In this document: one piece after another, positions 8,322 through 55,103 of the stretch
Layout: the number at the start of each line of letters is the position of its first letter
How positions within the stretch are numbered: the stretch's first letter is position 1
Source: Alphaproteobacteria bacterium
GTDB taxonomy: Bacteria; Pseudomonadota; Alphaproteobacteria; UBA11073
DNA: 64,000 bases
NCBI GenBank assembly: GCA_965246945.1
Contig: CBDFFW010000001.1
Coordinates: forward strand, 90,796 to 154,795
Direction of reading: 5' to 3'
Made by a program: the position numbers and the translations under genes
The notes under the pieces: model-generated
What the model saw: only the letters and a program-made list of their open reading frames with translations
What the model was told of the DNA's origin: nothing
Database searches by the model: none

Positions 8322-9275
8322 TTAATTTAAATTTGCATTGGAATACTGTTTTGTTCCGATCGCAACTGGCAGGCCACTTCCATGCTGAATGGCATTGGCC
8401 ACAACATCCCAATTTATTTCGGTGGTGAAAGTTGCCGCGCTGGCGATGGCAGTATAAATCATTTGGTTGTTGTCCTGCACGAAATGAAGATTGCCCGTGA
8501 TCAAATCGATTGGTTGGATGGGCGCAATTTCCAAATATAACGTATCGCCCTGCCAGCCAAGTTTATAGGGCTGGTTAACCACGGTAACTTCTGTGCCGTC
8601 TTCGATTAATCCGAATAAAGCTTCAATATCTTCAGGGAATAGGCGAATGCAGCCATGGCTGGTGCGTTTGCCAACACTATTCGGCACATTGGTGCCATGA
8701 ATAAGATAGCTCGGCCAGCCGAGATATAGTGCAAAATTGCCAAGCGGATTATCTGGCCCTGGTAAAACCTGTTCAGGCAATTCCGGGTTTTCAGCGCGAA
8801 TGGAAGCAGGCGGTGTCCAAATAGGATTTTGCTTCTTTCTAATAACCGTAGTAGTGCCTTGCGGTGTTTGCGAACCTTCTTTGCCAACACCAATCGGGAA
8901 GCTAAATACATGATCGATATCGGCAAAATAGAACAAGCGCAGTTCCGCCAGATTGATGACAATTCCATCGCGCGGCGCATCGGGCAAAATATGTGCTGTC
9001 GGCAAGGTAAGTATTTTACCAACTTTCAATTTTAGGGGATCGATACCTGGATTGGCTGCCAATAATTTAACGATGCCGACATCATGCTGCTGGGCAATCT
9101 TATATAAATTATCATTTGGCTGTACGGCATAAGAAGTGATGGTGCCAATCAGGTCATCATTAGCGAAAAATTCTGTGGCTTGCACCGCCGACGTTGCCCA
9201 CAGCGATAAAATGAGTAGCAAGGCAAAACGAAACAGAATTTGCCGAAAGTGTAATTTGGTAACAGATATAATCAT
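8322..9275 (-). CDS. L,D-transpeptidase (YkuD/ErfK family) with LysM domain and signal peptide
   Basis: LysM motif (YAVQPNDNLYKIAQQHDVGIVKLLAANPG...KVGKILTLP). YkuD catalytic motif (HGTNVPNSVGKRTSHGCIRL). I chose the start at the Met that precedes the signal peptide (MIISVTKLHFRQILFRFALLLILSLWATSAVQA). The tracked ORF extends to 9380. Confidence 0.75.
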   Translation of the reverse strand: MIISVTKLHFRQILFRFALLLILSLWATSAVQATEFFANDDLIGTITSYAVQPNDNLYKIAQQHDVGIVKLLAANPGIDPLKLKVGKILTLPTAHILPDAPRDGIVINLAELRLFYFADIDHVFSFPIGVGKEGSQTPQGTTTVIRKKQNPIWTPPASIRAENPELPEQVLPGPDNPLGNFALYLGWPSYLIHGTNVPNSVGKRTSHGCIRLFPEDIEALFGLIEDGTEVTVVNQPYKLGWQGDTLYLEIAPIQPIDLITGNLHFVQDNNQMIYTAIASAATFTTEINWDVVANAIQHGSGLPVAIGTKQYSNANLN

Positions 9276-9438
9276 GCGGTTTGATGACCTGTAGAAATAA
9301 ATTGAAGATTCAAAAGCCATTGTTTCCGGTGAGCGAAATAAAAATAAATCAAGCTGCTGATCGTGGCCGCAAAAAAGCACCAGACGGAAACCAGATAATA
9401 ATTAAAAAATGCGTAGGCGATGACAAAGGTAATCAAAT

Positions 9439-9951
9439 TCACAATGCCCAATTTACGCAGATGATTATCGCTGAAAAAAAGAACGCAGCGCAGGTCGCAA
9501 TAACGTAAATCGGGGTGACCCAATGATCATAGGGTATTGGCGGGTAGACGTATAAAATGCATGAATTGGCAATTTGTGCCGAGCCAGTGACCTGTAACAT
9601 GGCTGCTAAAACATAGGCCGCGACGACCCCACCAACTAATGTAACGCCGACCATGACCACACGACGTTGGTGGTTAGGTTCCAGTAACGCCACGCTGGCC
9701 GGTACTAGGATTGGCCAGATAATACCGGCGAATACGCCGTAAATGATGACCAGCCATAGCTGTATTTGCGGCCAAGTGCCGTGCAGCAGGTTAAGCCACA
9801 CCAAACCTTCAATGAATTGCTGAATCGCAAACAGCAGCGGCAAGGCGGCAAAAGGGATTTCTCGGTAACTACTGGTCTTTCGCAGCGAAGCAAAACCGAT
9901 GGTCGCCAAAACAGCAGCTGCACTAAAGCTGGCAACAGGCGAAAAACACAT
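9439..9951 (-). CDS. Hypothetical integral membrane protein (about 5 TM helices)
   Basis: 170 aa, hydrophobic throughout. No recognised motif. Confidence 0.45.
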   Translation of the reverse strand: MCFSPVASFSAAAVLATIGFASLRKTSSYREIPFAALPLLFAIQQFIEGLVWLNLLHGTWPQIQLWLVIIYGVFAGIIWPILVPASVALLEPNHQRRVVMVGVTLVGGVVAAYVLAAMLQVTGSAQIANSCILYVYPPIPYDHWVTPIYVIATCAAFFFSAIIICVNWAL

Positions 9952-10081: not shown

Positions 10082-10503
10082 ATGAGCCGCTTGCATATTC
10101 ATTCTGAAAACCATCTGGTTAAGCGCATAGGATGGTTAAGGCAGCCGTACTGGGTGCCAATGACGGCATCATTTCGGTCGCCAGTTTAATTATTGGGGTG
10201 GCTTCCGCTTCAACCGAACATAATCAAATTTTAATTGCCGGTGTGGCTGGGATTGCCGCCGGTGCCATGTCGATGGCAGCAGGCGAATATGTTTCGGTCA
10301 GCTCGCAATCTGATACTGAGCAAGCAGATTTGGCACGTGAACGTAAAGAACTAGCCGAAATGCCTGAAGCCGAATTGAATGAGTTAACTAAAATATACAT
10401 GGATCGCGGGCTGGAGGAGCCATTGGCGCGAGAAGTTGCCACCCAATTGATGAAAAGAGATGCATTAATCTCCTCTTTGGCGGCCACTTCCATTTTAAGC
10501 TGA
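10082..10503 (+). pseudogene. VIT1/CCC1-family iron/manganese transporter pseudogene (a 1-bp frameshift near 10131 plus C-terminal truncation)
   Basis: The frame from ATG 10082 gives MSRLHIHSENHLVKRIGWLRQ. The +1 frame from 10132 gives the conserved VIT continuation AAVLGANDGIISVASLIIGV...AGEYVSVSSQSD. Restoring one G in the run 'ggttaagg(g)cag' would join the two frames into the canonical GWLRAAVLGANDG. The ORF stops after about 120 residues of VIT domain, so the C-terminal TM half is missing. Confidence 0.6.
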
Positions 10504-10574
10504 TCGCTCAATATTTTTAGATCAGCCGTACGCGCTTCCACCGTTAGTTCGGTTGCTGCATAGGCCATTTCTAA

Positions 10575-10964
10575 TTGAGCATTTACCTTTTTCTATGGTT
10601 ACCGCAAGTTTTATGGCTGCATGTCATTTCGGATGCCATTATTGCGCTTTCTTATTACTCCATTCCGCTAACGATCTTATATTTTATTCGCAAACGCCGC
10701 GATCTGCCATTTCCTTATTTGTTTTATTTATTTGGTGCATTTATTCTTTTTTGCGGCACTACACATCTGATGGAAATCTGGGTGATCTGGCAACCCGATT
10801 ATCCGGAGGAAGGCCTTATGAAGGCCTTAACGGCCATGGTTTCCATATGTGCCGCTATTATCACCTGGAAAATTGTCCCTGTAGCACTGCAGTTAAGAAG
10901 CCCAGCAGAATTGGAAACAATGCCCATGCGGCATAAAATCAGCCGTGTCAAAAAAATGGTTTAG
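10575..10964 (+). CDS. Ethylene-binding-domain protein (ETR1-type copper/ethylene-binding transmembrane domain) without any output domain; possibly truncated
   Basis: 129 aa. ISDAIIALSYYSIPLTILYF...FGAFILFCGTTHLMEIW aligns closely with Arabidopsis ETR1 ISDFFIAIAYFSIPLELIYF...FGAFIVLCGATHLINLW. That alignment includes the Cu-ligand Cys and His (CGxTH). Three TM helices are followed by a short helical tail and then a stop. Confidence 0.6.
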   Translation: MSIYLFLWLPQVLWLHVISDAIIALSYYSIPLTILYFIRKRRDLPFPYLFYLFGAFILFCGTTHLMEIWVIWQPDYPEEGLMKALTAMVSICAAIITWKIVPVALQLRSPAELETMPMRHKISRVKKMV

Positions 10965-11725
10965 CATGGTAACAATAACCGTAATTTGAGTTGTCTAAAT
11001 TTTAAAGTTAAAACCCTTTAGCCAATCTTTAAGAAGGCGTATTAGCATACCATTCGGCTTATTGCCACCTAATGGAAATTCTAGAATTCCAGTTGATGAC
11101 AATACGAAAACTTTAAAAAGTTTTACCGCAAAGTAGAGTTTTTTGCCGACGCTTATTTGCGATTATGCGGTTTTATTTCAACACAATACCATGACCTTAA
11201 GCCACCTCAATTATAGATATCCCACCGGTACGGCGTTCACATGCTGATTTAGGGACACTAAACTATTAGCATAACACATTACTCCACCCTGACCAATCGG
11301 GATATTAAGATTTCCACCGCATTGAATCCTTTAAAGCCTGCCTGCATTTAAAATAGAAGCGCTTTTCTTTATCCCGAGTAGAACATGCGTGAGGAGTACG
11401 TACATAAAGTGTAAATATTCGTTATAGAAATGTGTTAGAGCCATTAGATATTCTAATGCGGAACATTAAAACTATGCATTTGACTAATCAATTCGTGGAC
11501 GACAAATTGTATAAAAATAGAGGCTCTCAATGGTGCGGCAAAATTTAGTTCAAAAGAAGCGTGCAGTGGTCAACGAACATTCCGCAGTGGCAGCTCCCAC
11601 AAACCATTGGAATTGCAAGCCTGGATAGCCAGATAACCATAATGCGGTTGGCTAGGTAAACCCTTAGAACAAGATTTTAAAATACTACTTTCAACAATTT
11701 TACAATAAAAAATATAGGATTCTTT

Positions 11726-14683
11726 ATGACAAAATCAGAATGTCCATTTATGCCGCAAGGCGCGACCAAACATGGGTTTGATCTTTTTCGTTATACTTTG
11801 GAAAAGCCAGACCGTGATCTGTTCGATGCTTGGCAGGATACTGTAACTACTGAGGCGCAAAAAGAACTTTATGATATATTATCAACCGAAGCACGTTTAA
11901 AAGTAGCTCAAATTGTGCATGTTTATGGTTTTTATAATTCACAATTAATCGCAAAAGCGCATCGTGAAGCAATTAAATTGCGGCAGGATAATGATGATCT
12001 GCCAGGCCAGACGATCGCTGGTGCTATTCAACGTGCTGCAGAAATGGGTTTAACAGCCGAGCAGATGAAAGAAGTTTTGTTGCGGCAAATTGCTTTATCT
12101 TTAACGGCGCATCCAACTCAATATAATTTACCTGAGCATGTACAGGCACGACAAGTTTTGGCTAAAGCAATACAAAAAGACGATCCCTCTAAGGACGAGA
12201 TCACAGAAGCGCTAAGTCTACTTTTAAATACGCCAGCTGGATTTGCTGAAAAAAAGATCCCGCAACAGGAATTGTTAGAAAATCTTGAGCATGCAACGAA
12301 TTTATTTTGGGTACTGCCTGGTCTACTTGATAGCGTTCGAAAATCGTTAGACATTGTGCATAGACAATTTCCTAACAATGGTTACGGCTATATTTTCACT
12401 GGTATCGAACCAGACATAAAATCAATTGTATTGCGCTTATGGCCGTGTGTAGACCGCGATGGCAATCCAGCGATTACAACGATGGTTACCACACTGGGTA
12501 TTGCCCAAAGCCAAGAAAAAATAGTTGATTTATATATAAATTCTATTGATTACATTTGTAAATTGAATGGCGATAAAGCACCGCGCAAAGTTACTTTCGA
12601 CAGATTACAGCGATTGAAACAAGCTTTAATCGACGGATCAATTTCGCCAAAAAATGATGCGGATATGGAGAAATTTGGTTTATTGCTAACAACTTGTTTA
12701 AAAGTGGAAGATGGGGATGAAGCATCAAAGCAACTACGCTGGCTAGATATGCGGGCACGTGTTTTCCGGTGGCATTTAGGTAAGTTTCAACCACGCCAGG
12801 AAGCAGGTGCCCATACCCAAGCGGTAGCCGCTATTGGTCCGCTTTTGCAGTTCGAAAATGGTTTCGAAGATACTGCTTATAATGCAAATATGCCCCAACC
12901 AGAAAAGCAGCAACAACTGCAAAAAATATTGGCCGCAATAAAGAATGCCAATATTGGTACTTTAGATCGTCTTAATAAAACTATCAGCGATCAATTATCT
13001 ATTGTAAGCCCTCAAATTTATAAGAACTACACTATTTTTAATCTCATAAGCGAAAACCCTGCGCATTTTTGCGATTACATTATTTCAAACGCCGGTAAGC
13101 CAAGCGATGTGTTGGAAGTTCTGGTATTGGCCAAGCTGGCTGGAGCTGAACAGACAATAAATATTCGTATGCTTTGTGAGACGTTGACTGATTTAAAGGC
13201 CATGCCACAAACCCTTGAAACGCTTTTGGCAATTCCTGAATATCGCGATTTCATCAAGCAAAATCACAATAATCGTTTACCTGTTATGATTGCGCTTTCA
13301 GATACTCAGCGCCAACACGGCCCAGCTATTATTTTCGATCAAATCTTAACGATGGTTGATTTATGTAAAGTTGCTTTAAAGCATGAGATCGAGCTCGAAA
13401 TTATGTGGGGTGGCTCTGATGATTTATACCGTGGTGGCGGTGATATTTCGATGTATCCTTATTACCTGGCCCGCAGCATTGTGGGTTATGCGGCAACCAC
13501 TAATCAAAAACTGAGCAAACTGGCAGCGTGCGTAAGAGAAGTTTCGTTTACGCTTCAAGGCCGGCAAGTGGAAGATGTGATTGGCAATACTGCATCTGCT
13601 TGGCGTCTGGGCGAGCGTATGTTTGCTGCCGCAACCAACTTTTATAGCTTTCTACGCGGCGAACACACAGCACAATTTCAGTTAGATTTGGCAGAAGAAT
13701 ATCAAGCCAATGAAGCTGCACGCGATGCCTTGCAGCCCTGCATGCGTGCCTATGAATTCATGCGCGGACCTTTGCTTGACACATTAAGTTTAGCTGTAGT
13801 GCCTGCTGCCGCAGTTAAAAAGTTAAACACTTCTTCTAGGCCAGACAAACGGCCAACGGTTATTGGCAATCCAGACCCACGTGAAATTGATGCATTGCCA
13901 TTAACTGATACCCGCGCCATTACCAACCAGTTTGCGGTGCAATTACCTGGATTAGAAATAAACGGTTGGTTTGGTTTAACCCAATTGGCTGACCTTGATG
14001 CCCGAATTGTTCAAAACTCTCCCATTCTACAGGAAATGCTTAAACGTGCGCTTATCTGTTTAGAACGCACATATCTTGAAAAAGTTTGGATGTTTTCTGG
14101 ACTTACACCACCTGCTTCCTGCATAGCCGCTTTGTACGATACCGCATTCAATCAGGTTTGGCAGCGGGAATTGCAACTTAGTATCAATGGCAAGCTAGAT
14201 CAAACCAATAAGCTCATACAATTTGATTTTAACAAATATATGCCCGTTGTATTGCAGCAATTGGATTTGGATGATACGTTAATAAATCGTCAGACTGTTT
14301 TATTAACCTGGCTTGAAGCAGAATATAAGCGTACGGAAAAAGTAGTTTGTCGGAAGTTTTTTAATAATCCCAAATTTAGTTCTCAATCCGCACGTGAAGC
14401 AGTAAAAACTTTTCCACGTTTATCTGAAGAACTTGTTTTGCAGAAAAGAAATATTGCGCCTATGCAAACATGGCTGGCAATGGCCACTACAGAATTGTAC
14501 CAAACGCCTCAGCCGACCCAAGCGCAACTTACTGCCCTGCAGGCTTTTGCCCAGGTAATTGCTGAAGGCACGCGTACGCCTAATGCTTACATTAACCACA
14601 CGCCCGGCTTTGAGCCAGACATGCGCAAAGTTAGTGATCATTTAAGTAAATTTGGCCCCAAAACATTCGCTGTTACTATTTAA
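11726..14683 (+). CDS. Divergent phosphoenolpyruvate carboxylase (PEPC)-like protein with substituted catalytic motifs; AT-rich
   Basis: 985 aa. It is colinear with E. coli Ppc through several signature blocks. LTAHPTQ matches [17 protein letters not shown] matches [31 protein letters not shown] matches [29 protein letters not shown] matches [21 protein letters not shown] corresponds to [32 protein letters not shown] corresponds to IELTLFHGRGGSIGRGGAP, with the His and the first Arg replaced. The C-terminus ends at ...FAVTI and lacks the conserved ...AGIAAGMRNTG tail. Confidence 0.7.
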   Translation: [985 protein letters not shown]

Positions 14684-14695
14684 TTCAACATTTCC

Positions 14696-15538
14696 TCAAC
14701 ATTTAAGTCTTTTTAGCACAAATTCTTCGAATGAATTTATCGCGGCATTATCGGCACGGTGTTTCAATAGTGAAACATGCGTAGCCTCCAACGCGGGTAA
14801 TAATTTTGTGCGCAAGGCATTTAATTGATCTGGAATCATAGTTAACGGTAAAACGGTAATTCCCAAACCGGCTTTAACAGCGGCAATTGTACCAGCATAA
14901 CTGGGACTAGAGAAGACCAGCCGCCATTTCAATCCAGCCCTTTCAAGCGATTGGAGGGCGCTGGACCGGTAGACACAAGGTTGCGGCGCAACTACCAAGG
15001 GAATAGGCCTGCCAGACTCCACCAAATTCATATCGCCTACCCATTCCAAGGGTTCAGACCACACTTCAACGCCATTTGGAAAATTCTCAGGTTGGTTCAT
15101 TTTCACCAGTACCAGATCAAACTTTTTTTGTTTGAAGCGCTGGAATAAATTTAAAGTTAAATCGCACTCCACATTTACCAATATGCGTGGATGAATGCGC
15201 GCGAACTCCACCAAAATATCTGATAAAAAGACGCTGGCAAAATTCTCTGGTAAGCCAAACCGTACTTCACCATGTAATTCCGGCTCTTTAAATCGATCTA
15301 ATGCTTCTCGATGCAAGGCGAAAATCTGCCGCGCATAGCTGCGAAAAATCTCGCCTTCGGCAGTTAAAGCAAAAGCTTTGCCACGTGTGAATAACTGTTT
15401 GCCAAGCAACTCTTCAAGTTTAGCAATTTGCTGACTAACAGCGGATTGCGTGCGGCCCACACGTTCAGCTGCTTTGGTGAAGCTAGCAGTTTCCGCCACA
15501 GCTAAAAAGGTCTGCAAAGTGATGGTATCGATAGTCAT
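14696..15538 (-). CDS. LysR-family transcriptional regulator, divergently transcribed from dabB
   Basis: 280 aa. N-terminal HTH (LQTFLAVAETASFTKAAERVGRTQSAVSQQIAKLEELLG) plus a substrate-binding domain. Convergent with the PEPC-like gene, with a 12-nt gap. Confidence 0.8.
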   Translation of the reverse strand: MTIDTITLQTFLAVAETASFTKAAERVGRTQSAVSQQIAKLEELLGKQLFTRGKAFALTAEGEIFRSYARQIFALHREALDRFKEPELHGEVRFGLPENFASVFLSDILVEFARIHPRILVNVECDLTLNLFQRFKQKKFDLVLVKMNQPENFPNGVEVWSEPLEWVGDMNLVESGRPIPLVVAPQPCVYRSSALQSLERAGLKWRLVFSSPSYAGTIAAVKAGLGITVLPLTMIPDQLNALRTKLLPALEATHVSLLKHRADNAAINSFEEFVLKRLKC

Positions 15539-15641
15539 TAGATTTTCTAATTTAGGATATAAGAATTATCCGTTTCACTTATCTAAATAATACTAATAGC
15601 TTGGTCAATAGAAATTAACATTTCTATGCCAAGGAGCAAAT
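15539..15641. promoter_or_regulatory. Divergent lysR/dabB intergenic control region (putative LysR-box-like AT dyads; RBS aaggag at 15630-15635)
   Basis: 103-bp AT-rich spacer containing ATAAGAATTAT / TTATC...TAAATAAT dyad-like elements. A canonical Shine-Dalgarno lies 7 nt before the dabB ATG. Confidence 0.35.
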
Positions 15642-16970
15642 ATGCTATCATCACTATTCCATATTGATCGGCTTGCCATCATTATGCTGGCTTTAATTGG
15701 TGCTATTGGCCTAATCATTTGGCAATTTTCACGGCGTTATTTGCAGGGCGATCAATTATATCGTGTTTTTTTCCAGCGGCTCGCATGTTTATTGGCATCA
15801 TTGGCATCATTGGTCATTACCGATAACCTAATTGTATTTTTAATCAGCTGGGGATTGGCCAATTATTGGTTGGTAAAATTGATGGTTCACAAGTCGGAAT
15901 GGTCTGCCGCCAAAGCGGCGGGGGAATTAACAGGTAAATCGCTTGGCCTGGGTTTTGCCAGCCTAGTTGCTGGCTTTACCTTGCTTTATTGGCTAACCGG
16001 CACGGCTTCTATTCAAGCGATTTTGCTGCACAATAATCAACACCCGGCTTTGCTGCTTGCCCTTGGATTAATTTTATTTACCGCCCTCATCCAATCAGCG
16101 ATTTGGCCTTTTTCCGGCTGGTTGAAAAATTCGCTTAATTCACCAACCCCTGTTTCGGCCATCATGCATGCCGGTCTGGTGAATGGGGGCGGTTTTTTAC
16201 TGGTACGTTTTGCGCCGCTTTATCTGCAACAGCCGTTGCTGCTCCAAATCATTTTTGTGCTTGGCATTACCAGCGCGGTGATTGGCACGTTATGGAAACT
16301 GCTGCAGCCGGATATTAAGCGGATGCTGGCTTGTTCGACCATGGCGCAAATGGGTTTTATGCTGGCGCAATGCGGCCTTGGTTTATTCCCGGCGGCAGTG
16401 GCCCATCTGTGCTGGCATGGCCTGTTCAAAGCCTATTTGTTTTTAGGCGCAGGTGGCGCGGCCCAGGAAAAGCGCTTGCCGATTATCCATCCGAATAGCT
16501 TTACCGCTTTTGCTTTGGCGCTGCTCTGCGGCTTACTTGGCAGTTATGGCTTTGCATTGGCCAGCCAACATGCATGGCTGGCGCCCAATAGCATATTGGT
16601 ACTGCAAGCGGTGGCTTCAATAGCTGCTGCGCAACTCGCGCTCACCCTGCTGCAAAATAAGCCATGGCAACGGCTGCCGCTGGCCGTTTTATTATGCGCC
16701 ATCGCTGGTGGTATGTATGGCGGCACCGTTGGCTTGGTTGAGCAAGTAATGGCACCGCTGCAAATTTTCCAACCGCAATCACTAAATGCTCTGCATATCA
16801 GTGCCATCGTTATCCTGGCCGCTGGTTGGCTCGGCATGTTGTTTAGCCAGCAGCTTGGCCGCCTAACCCAGCAGCCGTTTTTCTTACGCGGTTATGTGCT
16901 GGCGCTAAATGCAAGTCAGCCAAGCCCCGCTACCATCACCGCCCACCGCAACCATTATCGCTTAGGATAA
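15642..16970 (+). CDS. dabB: DabB/MpsA-like proton-conducting membrane transporter (NuoL/MrpA/NDH-5 family, PF00361-like)
   Basis: 442 aa polytopic membrane protein. Complex I antiporter-like subunit motifs are present (SPTPVSAIMHAGLVNGGGFLL; STMAQMGFML; HLCWHGLFKAYLFLGAG). It is immediately followed by a DUF2309 gene. Confidence 0.75.
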   Translation: MLSSLFHIDRLAIIMLALIGAIGLIIWQFSRRYLQGDQLYRVFFQRLACLLASLASLVITDNLIVFLISWGLANYWLVKLMVHKSEWSAAKAAGELTGKSLGLGFASLVAGFTLLYWLTGTASIQAILLHNNQHPALLLALGLILFTALIQSAIWPFSGWLKNSLNSPTPVSAIMHAGLVNGGGFLLVRFAPLYLQQPLLLQIIFVLGITSAVIGTLWKLLQPDIKRMLACSTMAQMGFMLAQCGLGLFPAAVAHLCWHGLFKAYLFLGAGGAAQEKRLPIIHPNSFTAFALALLCGLLGSYGFALASQHAWLAPNSILVLQAVASIAAAQLALTLLQNKPWQRLPLAVLLCAIAGGMYGGTVGLVEQVMAPLQIFQPQSLNALHISAIVILAAGWLGMLFSQQLGRLTQQPFFLRGYVLALNASQPSPATITAHRNHYRLG

Positions 16971-16973
16971 ATC

Positions 16974-19208
16974 ATGCAAACTGCCCTGAAAACCAAAGTT
17001 GTTGAAGTGACTGAAAACCCAGCCTACGACCTCGGCGAAGCGATTGCGACGGCTTGGAATTATATTGCGCCGTTCTGGCCGCTGAAAAACTTAATTGCCT
17101 GTAATCCCTTGCAAGGCCTAGAAGATTTACCTTTTGAGCAAGCGTTAAATAAAGGCATCGTGCTGTTTCAGCGCGCTGATCTGCCATCACCGCTGCTGGC
17201 TGTTAATCGCCAAACCATCAAATGGTGTCAGGTATTGTTTGACGATGGACAGGCGAGTTTAACCATGCCGCTGCGCGAACAGGGGTTTTTCGCCGCCTGG
17301 CGGCAATTGGCGGTGTTCGATGCACAGCTGCATCAAAATAATCAATTTCATAAAATGTGGTTGAACCGCCTGCCGCTTTCGGCTGAACAAACCATTGCGG
17401 AATGTTTGGTGAAATTGAATATTCCAGCAGCACAACACGAAACGTTTTTAACTTTATTATTAACCACCTTGCCTGGCTGGGCGGCTTATGCCAAATACCG
17501 TCTGAATTGGGAGCCAGATCAAGCGAATGCCACTTGCCCCATCCGCTCGGCTGATTATCTGGCAGTGCGCTTGGTTATCACCACCCTGCTATGGCCGGAT
17601 GCGGCAGAGTTATTGGTGGAACAAGATAATATTTCACCAGCAACTGATATCTTGGCCACCATCACTACCAAAGAAACAGCTTACCGCCAGGATTTATTGG
17701 CGAATTTGAAGCGGCAAGCGGCTGCCCCGCCAACTATCCGCCCAGCCGCACAAATGATATTCTGCATCGATGTGCGTTCCGAACCAATGCGCCGGGCGAT
17801 AGAAGGGCAGGGTGACTATGAAACCTTTGGCTTCGCAGGCTTTTTTGGCCTGCCGATAAGCTTGCAAAATGAAAAAACGGGCGAACGCTATGCATCCTGC
17901 CCAGTTTTGCTGCAACCTAAGTATCATTTGTCCGAAACCAGTTGCACTAGTGGGGATTGTGCTTCAGATAATGCGAACAGTAAGGCGCGTTTGCGTTTGT
18001 ATAAAAGTTTCTATCAGGCATTGAAATATCATTTTACGACCCCGTTCGCGCTGGTTGAAACGTTAGGCTTATGGGCCGGTTTGTGGATGGGTTTGCGCAC
18101 ACTGGCGCCGCAGACAGCTATTCAATTAAAGACCAACATTGTTAAAAAAATCAGGCCTGAAGTGCAAACCCAATTTGATATTGCGGGCAGCATCCCCTTT
18201 GCCGATCAATGTACTATGGCTGGCGGCGCCTTGCGTATGATGGGGTTAACCCAAAATTTCGCGCCACTAGTCGTTCTATGCGGCCATGGCAGTACCACGC
18301 AAAACAACGCTTATGCCACGGCCTTGGATTGCGGCGCGTGCGGCGGACGGCATGGCGGGAGCAATGCGCGTATTTTGGCGGCGATTTTGAACCATCAAAT
18401 GGTCCGGGTAGCTTTGGTGCAAGACGGTATTGTCATTCCGGCCGATACGCATTTTATCGCCGCGCAGCATGATACCACCACGGATGCGATTAACTTGTTA
18501 GTCGATGACGAATTATTAGGTGATCATCGCAACCAGGTCAGCACGTTACACGCAGCATTATCCCAAGCACAACACACCAATCAGCGAGTGCGCGCCGCAC
18601 AAATGAATACAGAGCTTGATCATATTCAATTGCGTAGCTGTGACTGGGCCCAAACCCGCCCGGAATGGGGCTTGGCACGCAATGCGGCGTTTATTGTTGG
18701 GCCACGTAGTTTAACTGCAACATTAAATTTAGCGGGCCGTAGTTTTCTGCATTCCTATGACTGGCAGCAAGATGCTAATAGTACAGCGCTTACTACCATT
18801 TTAACCGCGCCGATGGTGGTTGCCCAATGGATTAATAGCCAGTATTTATTTTCCAGCTTGGATAATGTGGCTTATGGCAGCGGCAGCAAAATTACCCAAA
18901 ATGTCACTGGCAAAATGGGGATTATGCAGGGCAATGCCAGCGACTTAATGCATGGTTTGCCCCTGCAATCGGTTTACTCCAACGACAACAAACCTTATCA
19001 CCAGCTGCAACGGTTGCTAACCGTGGTTTACGCGCCCAAAGCGAAAATTGATAAAATTATCGCCGCGCAGCCCGTTTTACAAAAACTATTCGGCAATGGC
19101 TGGGTGCAATTGGTTTGCCTTGAACCAGCCAGCAAACTGGCCTATCAGCTGCAGCGTGATTTCACTTGGGAGAAATTAGTAGGTGAGCATGTCATGCTAT
19201 GCGGGTAG
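16974..19208 (+). CDS. dabA: DabA/MpsB-like DUF2309 protein (beta-carbonic-anhydrase-like component of the DAB inorganic-carbon uptake system)
   Basis: 744 aa. It starts 4 nt after the dabB stop. It contains a beta-CA-like CxDxR motif (IFCIDVRSEP) and an H...C cluster (CGHGSTTQNNAYATALDCGACGG). Length and arrangement match DUF2309 partners of NuoL-like proteins. Confidence 0.75.
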   Translation: MQTALKTKVVEVTENPAYDLGEAIATAWNYIAPFWPLKNLIACNPLQGLEDLPFEQALNKGIVLFQRADLPSPLLAVNRQTIKWCQVLFDDGQASLTMPLREQGFFAAWRQLAVFDAQLHQNNQFHKMWLNRLPLSAEQTIAECLVKLNIPAAQHETFLTLLLTTLPGWAAYAKYRLNWEPDQANATCPIRSADYLAVRLVITTLLWPDAAELLVEQDNISPATDILATITTKETAYRQDLLANLKRQAAAPPTIRPAAQMIFCIDVRSEPMRRAIEGQGDYETFGFAGFFGLPISLQNEKTGERYASCPVLLQPKYHLSETSCTSGDCASDNANSKARLRLYKSFYQALKYHFTTPFALVETLGLWAGLWMGLRTLAPQTAIQLKTNIVKKIRPEVQTQFDIAGSIPFADQCTMAGGALRMMGLTQNFAPLVVLCGHGSTTQNNAYATALDCGACGGRHGGSNARILAAILNHQMVRVALVQDGIVIPADTHFIAAQHDTTTDAINLLVDDELLGDHRNQVSTLHAALSQAQHTNQRVRAAQMNTELDHIQLRSCDWAQTRPEWGLARNAAFIVGPRSLTATLNLAGRSFLHSYDWQQDANSTALTTILTAPMVVAQWINSQYLFSSLDNVAYGSGSKITQNVTGKMGIMQGNASDLMHGLPLQSVYSNDNKPYHQLQRLLTVVYAPKAKIDKIIAAQPVLQKLFGNGWVQLVCLEPASKLAYQLQRDFTWEKLVGEHVMLCG

Positions 19209-20037
19209 ACAGATCTTGTTGCCTACCCAGCATCAAAAAGCGATGGCACTAGCGCCAGCATTCAAAAATGTTTTGGACGCTGAGATTGCCGAAATTATCA
19301 TTGATACCGATCAATTCGGTACTTTTTCAGGCGAGGTTGAACGACCAGGTGATGCACAGGCTTGCGCCAAGCTTAAATGTGAAGCAGCGTTGGCTATCAC
19401 GGATACACCTTACGCTGTCGCCAGCGAAGGCAGTTTTGGTCCGCATCCCGTTATTCCAATATTGGCTTGCAACCATGAACTGCTATATTTTATTGATCAC
19501 GAAAATGACTTTCACTTGTCTTTAACCAAGCTATGCACAGATACCAATTACCGCATGGCAACGGTTGAGAATGTTGATCAGCTACATACTTTTGCCAAAC
19601 AAACTTATTTTACTTCGCATGCTTTGATGATCAGGCCCAATATCTGGGCTGACCAAAAGATTATTTTCAAAGGTCTCCAAACATATGAGGCCCTCCATCA
19701 AGCTTTTATAGTTGCTTGCCAAAATTCTGGTGATGGGCAGGCTTTCGTCCAAACCGAAATGCGTGCTCACTTCAATCCAACCCGCATGCGAAATATTGCC
19801 AAATTGGCAGGAGATTTGGCTAAACGGTTATGTTCAATTTGCCCTGTTTGCCAAACACCCGGTTGGGGCAAGATTGCCATCAAAACTGGCTTGCCCTGTA
19901 GCTGGTGCCAAACCAAAACCAACCTTGTAAAAAATGAAATATGGGGTTGCGCCAAGTGTGATTATCAGGAAGCGAAAGAACGATTAGATGGTTTGCGAGC
20001 TGCCGAGCCGACTTATTGTCCCAGCTGTAATCCTTAA
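19183..20037 (+). CDS. Hypothetical protein with a C-terminal double CxxC zinc-ribbon, translationally coupled to dabA (start uncertain: 19183, 19189 or 19243)
   Basis: 284 aa ORF overlapping the dabA stop by 26 nt. The C-terminus reads CSICPVCQTPGW...CSWCQT...CAKCDY...CPSCNP, which gives 4 to 5 CxxC pairs. Confidence 0.5.
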   Translation: MSMSCYAGRQILLPTQHQKAMALAPAFKNVLDAEIAEIIIDTDQFGTFSGEVERPGDAQACAKLKCEAALAITDTPYAVASEGSFGPHPVIPILACNHELLYFIDHENDFHLSLTKLCTDTNYRMATVENVDQLHTFAKQTYFTSHALMIRPNIWADQKIIFKGLQTYEALHQAFIVACQNSGDGQAFVQTEMRAHFNPTRMRNIAKLAGDLAKRLCSICPVCQTPGWGKIAIKTGLPCSWCQTKTNLVKNEIWGCAKCDYQEAKERLDGLRAAEPTYCPSCNP

Positions 20038-53570: not shown

Positions 53571-55103
53571 GTGCCCACCCCTAAATTCACGCTTAATTGG
53601 TATGGCGCAGGTATTTCCCTACGGATCTTTGTTATCAATTTGCTGTTTTTAACTTTGGTCGGAGGCGGCGTGATTGCGCTGATGCTCAGCGTTTACAGCA
53701 ATGCGTATGAGGCAGAAAAAAAATTTCTGACCAATGCGCTACAGCAGTTGGATGTCTCCTTGCGCTATTTACGCAGTGATGATCCGCAGCTGAACCGGCA
53801 TTTGCAGCAATGGGGCGTGTTGTTCAGCGATCCGAATTTACTAGCCGAGCTTACTTCCGGTTCTGAAACCATTGCCAGTGTTGCGCCGCTGGCCCCAGTA
53901 CGGCCGAACACCGTGCCGACCATGGATTGGCAAACCAATCTGGCTCTACGTTTATTTCATATCGATCCCAACACCATTTTGCCGGTACCGGATTTAACTT
54001 CGCCCGCCGCCTACCGCCTGTCGCTGGCGCAGCACGATGATGATTTCGTGTTGGTGTTTGCGCGCAATATTATGCTGCAGGACCGCATGGTGCGGCTGCG
54101 CGGTTATATTCCCTTGGAAGAATTAACGCATGCCATTAACTGGATCCGCCAATTAATCGCGCCTGTTTTTTGGTTATTTCTGGTGATCAGCAGTATCCAG
54201 GCCATTTTGCTGGGCCAGATGATCAGCGGCCCGTTGCAGCGCCTGGCGCGCCGCCTGCAATATATCCGGCTGGATCCCAAAGCCAAATTGCTGACCCCTT
54301 CATCGGTCCAGGGCAATAGCGAAATCAGCCTGCTGTACCGGTTTATCCGTGAGATGCTGGAAACCATTCGGGAAAGCAGCCAAACCAATAAAGCGATTAT
54401 TGAAGATTTCATTCATGAAATTAAAAACCCGCTGGCTTCCATTGAAAGCGCTATTCAAAGCATCCGTAAAATTAAAGACCCCGAAAAAAATGCGATGCTG
54501 ATTAAAATTATTGAACATGATTTGCGCCGCATGATCCGTATTTTACATGATGTCGATGCCCTATTTGCCGCTGGTAGTGAAGGCAACACCTATGTCACCA
54601 ATTTTGCCGATGTGCCATTGGTGCCATCGCTGCAGCAAATTGTGAAACACCTAAACCAGCAAGCCACTACGGATGAGAAAAAAGTGCAAATTCGCTATGT
54701 TTATGACCGCGAAATTACCATCCGTGCCAACCAATTTTATTTTGAACAGATGATGATCAATTTACTGACCAATGCGATGTCATTTTCCCCGCCGCATGGT
54801 GAGGTGGTACTGCAAACCATTGCGACCGCCGACGGGCAGCATGTGGATATCATTGTAGATGATTGGGGCACCGGTATTCCGGCCGGTAAACTAGCCAAAG
54901 TGTTTGAACGGTTTTATACCGACCGTGAAAACGCCCCGCGCACTGGCGAAGGTATGTATCATTCCGGCCTCGGCCTCAGCATCGCCAAACAAACCGCAGC
55001 CTCAATGGGCGGCCAAATCTGGGCCGAAAACCGCCTTAACTCCAACAAAAACATCATCGGCGCCCGATTTAATGTGCGACTGCCGGTGGTGGAGAAGAAG
55101 TAA
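53571..55103 (+). CDS. Two-component sensor histidine kinase (two TM helices, periplasmic loop, HisKA plus HATPase_c)
   Basis: 510 aa. H-box (IHEIKNPLASIESAI). G-boxes (DDWGTGIPAGKLAKVFERFYT ... GLGLSIAKQ). No response-regulator gene is adjacent in the window. Confidence 0.8.
   Translation: MPTPKFTLNWYGAGISLRIFVINLLFLTLVGGGVIALMLSVYSNAYEAEKKFLTNALQQLDVSLRYLRSDDPQLNRHLQQWGVLFSDPNLLAELTSGSETIASVAPLAPVRPNTVPTMDWQTNLALRLFHIDPNTILPVPDLTSPAAYRLSLAQHDDDFVLVFARNIMLQDRMVRLRGYIPLEELTHAINWIRQLIAPVFWLFLVISSIQAILLGQMISGPLQRLARRLQYIRLDPKAKLLTPSSVQGNSEISLLYRFIREMLETIRESSQTNKAIIEDFIHEIKNPLASIESAIQSIRKIKDPEKNAMLIKIIEHDLRRMIRILHDVDALFAAGSEGNTYVTNFADVPLVPSLQQIVKHLNQQATTDEKKVQIRYVYDREITIRANQFYFEQMMINLLTNAMSFSPPHGEVVLQTIATADGQHVDIIVDDWGTGIPAGKLAKVFERFYTDRENAPRTGEGMYHSGLGLSIAKQTAASMGGQIWAENRLNSNKNIIGARFNVRLPVVEKK

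Follow-up and report, generated by a model that had tools for sequence, protein, structure and literature searches.

In Arabidopsis, the N-terminal domain of the ethylene receptor ETR1 consists of three transmembrane helices. The N-terminus of plant ETR1 uses Cys4 and Cys6, whereas the bacterial subfamily of ethylene-binding domains (EBDs) uses an HGxC motif at its N-terminus. Within ETR1, a Cys and a His chelate copper, an Asp bonds His69, and a Lys sits in helix 3 (PMC11971883). Ethylene-binding domains have also been described in proteobacteria, where they are linked to diverse outputs (PMC7700396, PMC11819568). Two bacterial EBD sensors are SynEtr1 of Synechocystis (slr1212) and AzoEtr1 of Azospirillum brasilense, the latter an alphaproteobacterial protein with the architecture EBD-PAS-HK (PMC11819568). 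Each is an undisrupted sensor kinase that has a response regulator as its partner, and in both of them the first 130 residues are enough to bind ethylene when assayed in a heterologous system. N-terminal constructs of around 130 residues from AtETR1 and SynEtr1 likewise bind ethylene in heterologous expression (PMC6682694, PMC11819568).

The locus described here lies in a 64-kb stretch of DNA (64,000 nucleotides), referred to below as the window, from an alphaproteobacterium. It contains an open reading frame (ORF) of 129 codons with a TTG start, which an initial annotation located correctly at 10575-10964 on the plus strand and read as either a stand-alone EBD protein or the decayed 5' remnant of a receptor. 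From the comparisons that follow, the ORF is very probably the middle piece of the gene for an ordinary bacterial EBD histidine kinase, and not a gene in its own right. The anatomy can be read directly from the DNA: the receptor gene lies in three pieces, these are colinear with its relatives, and its output domains are absent from the window. The features of the locus are collected in Table 1. Unlike AzoEtr1 and SynEtr1, it has no kinase, no PAS or GAF domain and no adjacent regulator; the neighboring genes encode a CRP-like regulator, an L,D-transpeptidase, a DUF6629 protein, VIT1, a PEPcase-like protein, a LysR regulator and DabBA, and no adjacent cognate response regulator is found among them.

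Table 1. Features in and around the disrupted receptor locus, in positions of the window
Feature	Position	Strand	Description
DUF6629 gene	9272..9951	-	Frameshift at or close to a T7 run (9474-9480) splits the gene
VIT1/CCC1 pseudogene	10082..10467	+	Frameshifted; cut off near residue 130 of ~226
Junction zone	10468..10493		Truncated receptor linker (-) meets truncated VIT1 (+); breakpoint located to this zone
R3, receptor linker / signalling helix after the domain	10494..10589	-	KVNAQLEMAYAATELTVEARTADLKILSDQLK (begins KVNAQLEMAYAATELTVEARTADLK...)
129-aa ORF	10575..10964	+	Chimera: 5 antisense codons (MSIYL), 109 true receptor codons, 15 antisense codons and stop
R2, EBD body, ancestral codons 18-126	10590..10916	+	Three TM helices and the Asp/Cys/His/Lys site; inverted relative to both flanks
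R1, ancestral receptor start	10917..10967	-	ATG at 10967-10965, sequence MLNHFFDTADFMPHGHC, ends at 10917
Ancestral upstream (divergent promoter) region	10968..11725		Separates the receptor start from the PEPcase-like gene at 11726; no domain relic

Relatives of the ORF are numerous. A HMMER scan of 1.84 billion cluster representatives with the ORF as query, used as the unbiased counterpart of a word-indexed search that gave short proteins only, returned 8035 relatives (clusters at 50% identity), the nearest of which is 63% identical. The best 150 of these 8035 have a median length of 562 aa, 134 of the 150 being at least 350 aa long, and all except one carry the HGxC motif before helix 1 (149/150). 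Homology to these 150 proteins starts at query residues 4-6, which align to their residues ~19-20, and ends at query residue ~115-117. Among the relatives examined, the five closest have the architecture EBD-HisKA-HATPase_c, with a receiver in some of them, and the same is found in P0139, P0140, P0142 and P0145, again with a receiver in some. Metagenomic hybrid kinases of the P0139 type (EBD-HisKA-HATPase_c-Response_reg, ~410-570 aa) are 58-63% identical to the ORF over the domain. They share with the window pieces an N-terminal FMPHGHCFLW and a linker, ELEKVN..L..AYA..E..V..RTA.L, which in the P0139 type runs straight into HisKA. In contrast, the window gene is divided into three pieces that alternate between the strands, and it is without HisKA, HATPase and receiver.

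A scan of genomes with an EBD alignment found at least 587 loci in many phyla, the best among the matches listed being 55% identical. The loci listed include Rugamonas, Duganella, Pseudomonas gingeri, Asticcacaulis, Verrucomicrobia, Acidimicrobiia and Rickettsiales metagenome-assembled genomes. EBDs are therefore common outside the cyanobacteria, as the 8035 clusters and the proteobacterial cases already described (PMC11819568, PMC7700396) also indicate, and neither the domain nor its host is remarkable, contrary to the initial view that an EBD would be notable in a non-cyanobacterial genome. None of the loci listed from the genome scan is a sister locus showing the ancestral arrangement. The contig of the best relative (L001) is not syntenic with the window, and the convergent gene found there is not VIT1.

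Short EBD-only proteins are also found. The closest short relatives, P0002, P0003 and P0004 (197-204 aa, metagenomic, 60-62% identity), consist of an EBD and a coiled coil of ~80 residues with a conserved end, ..RExRMxELKQxINxL..GKPxxY, and Pfam finds no catalytic domain in them; they could represent an output-less EBD class that exists in nature, or else gene calls cut short. On a Terriglobales metagenome contig (ENA ERZ25039471; L083, 4001-5366), a complete EBD-only ORF of 141 aa overlaps by 8 nt an ORF of 315 aa that has a receiver and a weak HisKA match, and a second receiver gene comes next. The same or a near-identical 141-aa protein occurs on ~70 contigs. This arrangement could be a genuine split pair of EBD and output or a recurrent frameshift. 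By Pfam, the short proteins (Terriglobales 129/141 aa; the ~200-aa P0002-P0004) contain ETR1_N alone, as does the ORF in the window. However, they have a complete N-terminus with HGxC, are found on many contigs and lie beside receiver-domain genes, none of which is true of the window ORF. A complete N-terminus, a start and stop of its own, and recurrence, as would be expected of a stand-alone EBD, are all lacking in the window ORF.

The assignment of the domain itself, as made in the initial annotation, is sound. The Pfam family PF25487 (ETR1_N, 'Ethylene receptor 1-like, N-terminal domain') matches ORF residues 12-107 over profile positions 2-97 of 97 with 134.7 bits (E=1.3e-39), well above the curated threshold of 27 bits, so that the predicted ethylene-binding domain is far beyond chance; NCBIfam has no model for it, and a PDB sequence search gave no solved relative. 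Three hydrophobic segments, at residues 5-35, 44-62 and 80-107, are seen by hydropathy alone (Kyte-Doolittle windows of 19 residues above 1.6, as distinct from a dedicated transmembrane predictor). In two alignments D20, C60, H64 and K83 occupy invariant columns, which we take to be those of ETR1 Asp25, Cys65, His69 and Lys91. On this matching, the Cys and His ligands are kept, as was initially claimed, and so are all the residues of the predicted copper/ethylene site; identity to the ETR1 domain is ~30%.

As an EBD protein, though, the ORF product is incomplete. Its homology to the relatives begins only at residue 6, the receptor sequence being residues 6-114 (10590-10916), and the polypeptide is without the HGxC motif, which in the window is separated from the domain and encoded on the opposite strand at 10967-10917. 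In a search of 5.8 billion proteins the sole exact match of the window protein was itself, a single-member cluster on one contig; no orthologue was found among them, and no relative exceeds 63% identity.

From 137 of the 150 best relatives we made profile HMMs of the N-terminus, the body and the linker, and ran these three against all stop-to-stop pieces in the six frames of the 64-kb window. The body model finds its sole match in ORF residues 6-114 (HMM positions 1-109 of 109, E=2.5e-52). The N-terminal model has a single significant match, on the minus strand at 10967-10917 (E=1.8e-8; runner-up 0.31), which tblastn with P0007 also finds, at E=5.7e-5. Local tblastn places the N-terminal segment of the homologues (..LF..DFMPHGxC) at 10964-10914 of the minus strand, antisense to the tail of the ORF. 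The best match of the linker model in the window is on the minus strand at 10589-10494 (E=0.015; runner-up 1.6); this piece is in frame with a minus-strand ORF at 10224..10568 and extends the alignment to P0139 without gaps through residue 158.

When R1, R2 and R3 are rejoined, they align to P0139 (558 aa) without a gap at 61% identity over 154 residues, with 221 bits as against 173 bits for the gapped alignment of the ORF alone. Both junctions, HGHC/FLWLP and ELE/KVN, are identical in the rejoined sequence and P0139, and the same colinearity holds against 13 other homologues. The ends of the ORF are read from the ancestral gene in antisense. Residues 116-129 (MPMRHKISRVKKMV) and the stop, initially described as a short coiled tail, are the antisense reading of the first 17 ancestral codons, the stop TAG at 10962-10964 being the antisense of ancestral codon 2 (CTA). 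At the other end, the ORF codons ATTTACCTT (I-Y-L; ATT TAC CTT) are the reverse complement of the linker codons AAGGTAAAT (K-V-N; AAG GTA AAT). The suggestion that the ORF might be a decayed 5' remnant of a receptor was thus right in so far as it is a receptor remnant, but it is an internal inverted piece of 327 bp and not a 5' end in front of decayed output DNA. This piece is flanked by the true 5' end and the linker, both encoded on the opposite strand, and the output domains appear to have been deleted or moved at the VIT1 junction.

The DNA that follows the ORF fits this orientation. The initial annotation noted about 760 bp of AT-rich DNA downstream; the region is slightly AT-richer (GC 0.36-0.40 against ~0.42 in its surroundings), yet with respect to the ancestral gene it lies upstream. 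A six-frame search of 10965-11725 for relics of output domains gave no Pfam match at E<=1, because this is the region upstream of the ancestral gene. Stops occur in all frames of 10968-11725, and no Rfam family is found there, the only Rfam matches in the window being two tRNAs. Promoter-like sites in this region are not above shuffle expectation in a promoter and terminator scan, and there is no convincing promoter or Shine-Dalgarno sequence before the TTG of the ORF.

On the other side of the domain, the minus-strand linker meets the plus-strand VIT1 sequence ~32-40 codons after the domain, with VIT1 homology ending at 10467-10473 and receptor homology at ~10494. The VIT1 match (PF01988) covers profile positions 1-117 of 214 only. 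VIT1 relatives are 223-226 aa long, and in tblastn their residues 1-20 align to 10082-10141 and their residues 18-130 to 10132-10467/10473, in two frames; one G is missing near 10138-10141, in TGG TTA AGG(G) CAG. The first 20 VIT1 codons (MSRLHIHSENHLVKRIGWLR), 95% identical to a homologue, are therefore out of frame with the annotated ORF of 123 aa (10132-10503), and no full-length five-helix VIT1/CCC1 protein of ~225 aa in one frame occurs at the locus. A tblastn search for the C-terminal half of VIT1 found nothing in the window, the effective probe being residues 130-165 only, as the queries were garbled beyond ~165. For the receptor, tblastn with four full-length kinases found no HisKA or HATPase remnant anywhere in the 64-kb window, the sole kinase match being an unrelated ChvG-like gene at 53571-55103. 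In no frame at the locus is the EBD contiguous with a transmitter (HisKA and HATPase_c) or another output domain. At the stop of the VIT1 ORF, within the antisense receptor linker, positions 10499-10526 form a palindrome, GCTGATC-N14-GATCAGC, which lacks a T-tract and did not register as a terminator.

The next gene, for a DUF6629 protein, is also broken, with the ORF at 9439..9951 matching profile positions 2-153 of 209 and an overlapping ORF at 9272..9523 matching positions 149-202 of 209. Three adjacent genes are thus broken within 9.3-11.0 kb. Around 30 other ORFs of the window were tested and gave no sign of such disruption, most family matches spanning the whole profile, as in EttA, transketolase, DabA, FlgK, KdsD, RNase H, YceI, cytochrome b561 and LexA.

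We put the probability at about 80% that the locus is a recently scrambled pseudogene of a minus-strand EBD hybrid histidine kinase, of the form EBD-HisKA-HATPase_c and probably with a receiver. One lesion would be a precise inversion of 327 bp (10590-10916), which would have put codons 18-126 on the plus strand. In the other, the receptor would have been cut ~40 codons past the domain and joined tail-to-tail to VIT1, which was likewise cut, near residue 130. Most simply, a single deletion would have taken the 3' ends of two convergent genes; the locus would look the same after a large inversion whose second breakpoint fell beyond the window. The flipped piece would stay open because it is real coding sequence, and a TTG that happens to lie five codons before it and a TAG that happens to lie fifteen codons after it would make it into the 129-aa ORF that gene callers report. 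Since every fragment still has its conserved residues, the events appear to be recent. Moreover, R1 and R3, which can no longer be translated as receptor, are as well preserved as the body, so that the intactness of the body points to recency and is not evidence of selection. With the kinase absent in either orientation, ethylene signalling through the locus would be lost. We infer a product without function, arising from recent events as part of gene loss in a small alphaproteobacterial genome.

The inversion is exact, with a flipped segment of 109 codons and no base gained or lost. A reversible switch of the kind seen in intragenic invertons, in which a short segment is inverted within a coding sequence, might come to mind, as the inversion is exact to the codon and both orientations can be read. 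Intragenic invertons are reversible inversions inside coding genes whose hallmarks are inverted repeats at their borders and an invertase. Here, a repeat search found no pair of inverted repeats at 10590/10916, and local alignment of the two junctions scored 7, where random sequence has a mean of 6.1 and reaches 8 at the 95th percentile, with only ~2 nt of microhomology (TT), read from the sequence, common to each junction. No recombinase, invertase or transposase is encoded by the neighboring genes, and the other orientation would still be without a kinase. The anatomy is not that of a programmed inverton, and a switch that toggles the reading frame of the receptor is scarcely credible; the inversion looks instead like illegitimate rejoining of two breaks or a template-switch event. 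An error of assembly or consensus is a different matter, since the real gene could then be un-inverted and perhaps intact, the lesions being errors or minority variants in a metagenome assembly. The perfectly conservative inversion, the lack of decay in any fragment, and the position of both frameshifts at homopolymer runs (G2/3 in VIT1, T7 in DUF6629) speak for this, as such an inversion and such frameshifts could arise in long-read metagenome assembly. The lineage also seems to be known from long-read metagenomes, as its nearest EttA relative lies on a circular 1.93-Mb metagenome contig labelled 14x, and the GTDB representatives include neither the source genome nor its close kin. However, three independent kinds of lesion fall within 1.7 kb while the other ORFs are clean, and random error would not cluster in this way. 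Assemblers rarely make clean inversions of 327 bp without duplication, and the junction of VIT1 with the receptor would require a second, unrelated misjoin. We consider an artefact unlikely.

If the DNA is as assembled, the ORF might still encode a functional ethylene/copper-binding membrane protein, acting alone or in trans and perhaps expressed from the VIT1 promoter by read-through. None of the 109 receptor codons is disrupted and no conserved residue is lost, which may reflect purifying selection, and the truncated VIT1 upstream on the same strand could be a source of transcription. Short EBD-only ORFs recur in other lineages, such as the Terriglobales. As the ~130-residue constructs of AtETR1 and SynEtr1 bind ethylene, the product would not, by analogy, be obviously inert. 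These points count against the pseudogene reading. Set against them are the absence of a near-invariant N-terminal motif, the 20 of 129 codons that are antisense junk and make up both ends, the TTG start, before which neither a clear ribosome-binding site nor a clear promoter is seen, and the lack of any orthologue or close relative among the 5.8 billion proteins. The adjoining genes are decaying, and as the sister fragments, which cannot be translated, are equally well preserved, the intactness of the ORF is explained by recency. A stand-alone protein, the first of the readings offered initially, is accordingly judged very unlikely on the protein and DNA comparisons. There is a slim chance that the flipped piece is alive in a more general sense, either as a minimal three-helix copper/ethylene-binding protein without HGxC or output, or through a repeat-less switch that is heterogeneous in the population. 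Were this so, the locus would offer a natural experiment in the smallest ethylene-binding unit, or a newborn stand-alone sensor or copper-handling protein.

Under the pseudogene reading, which we prefer, the main value of the locus is as a correction, in that an apparent output-less ethylene receptor would be the flipped central part of an ordinary EBD histidine kinase gene that has been broken. The locus belongs, in disrupted form, to a known family rather than representing a new kind of receptor, and no new question on ethylene sensing is opened by it. The lesson is that both strands should be inspected before a domain-only match to a sensor module is taken for a stand-alone receptor. The locus also documents a repeat-less intragenic inversion together with a tail-to-tail gene fusion, in an island of three decaying genes within an otherwise intact stretch.

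With regard to the host, the best named matches of EttA are from Alphaproteobacteria/Rhodospirillales, at ~69% identity, and the closest match, at 75%, is on the circular contig mentioned above (L082; ENA ERZ26165376, ctg355606_14x_c). On that contig an ankyrin-repeat gene adjoins ettA, which hints at a eukaryote-associated lineage. A small genome (~1.8 Mb) and local gene decay would fit a host-associated lifestyle.

Beyond the receptor start, the window carries at 11726-20037 a further set of genes. It begins with the PEPcase-like protein of 985 aa, which at 129 bits falls below the NCBIfam PEPC threshold of 815 and is without close relatives among the GTDB representatives. After it come a LysR regulator on the minus strand, a DabB-like Proton_antipo_M protein, DabA (PF10070, E=9e-225) and a DUF6671 protein, and the whole looks like a cluster for bicarbonate uptake with a divergent carboxylase.
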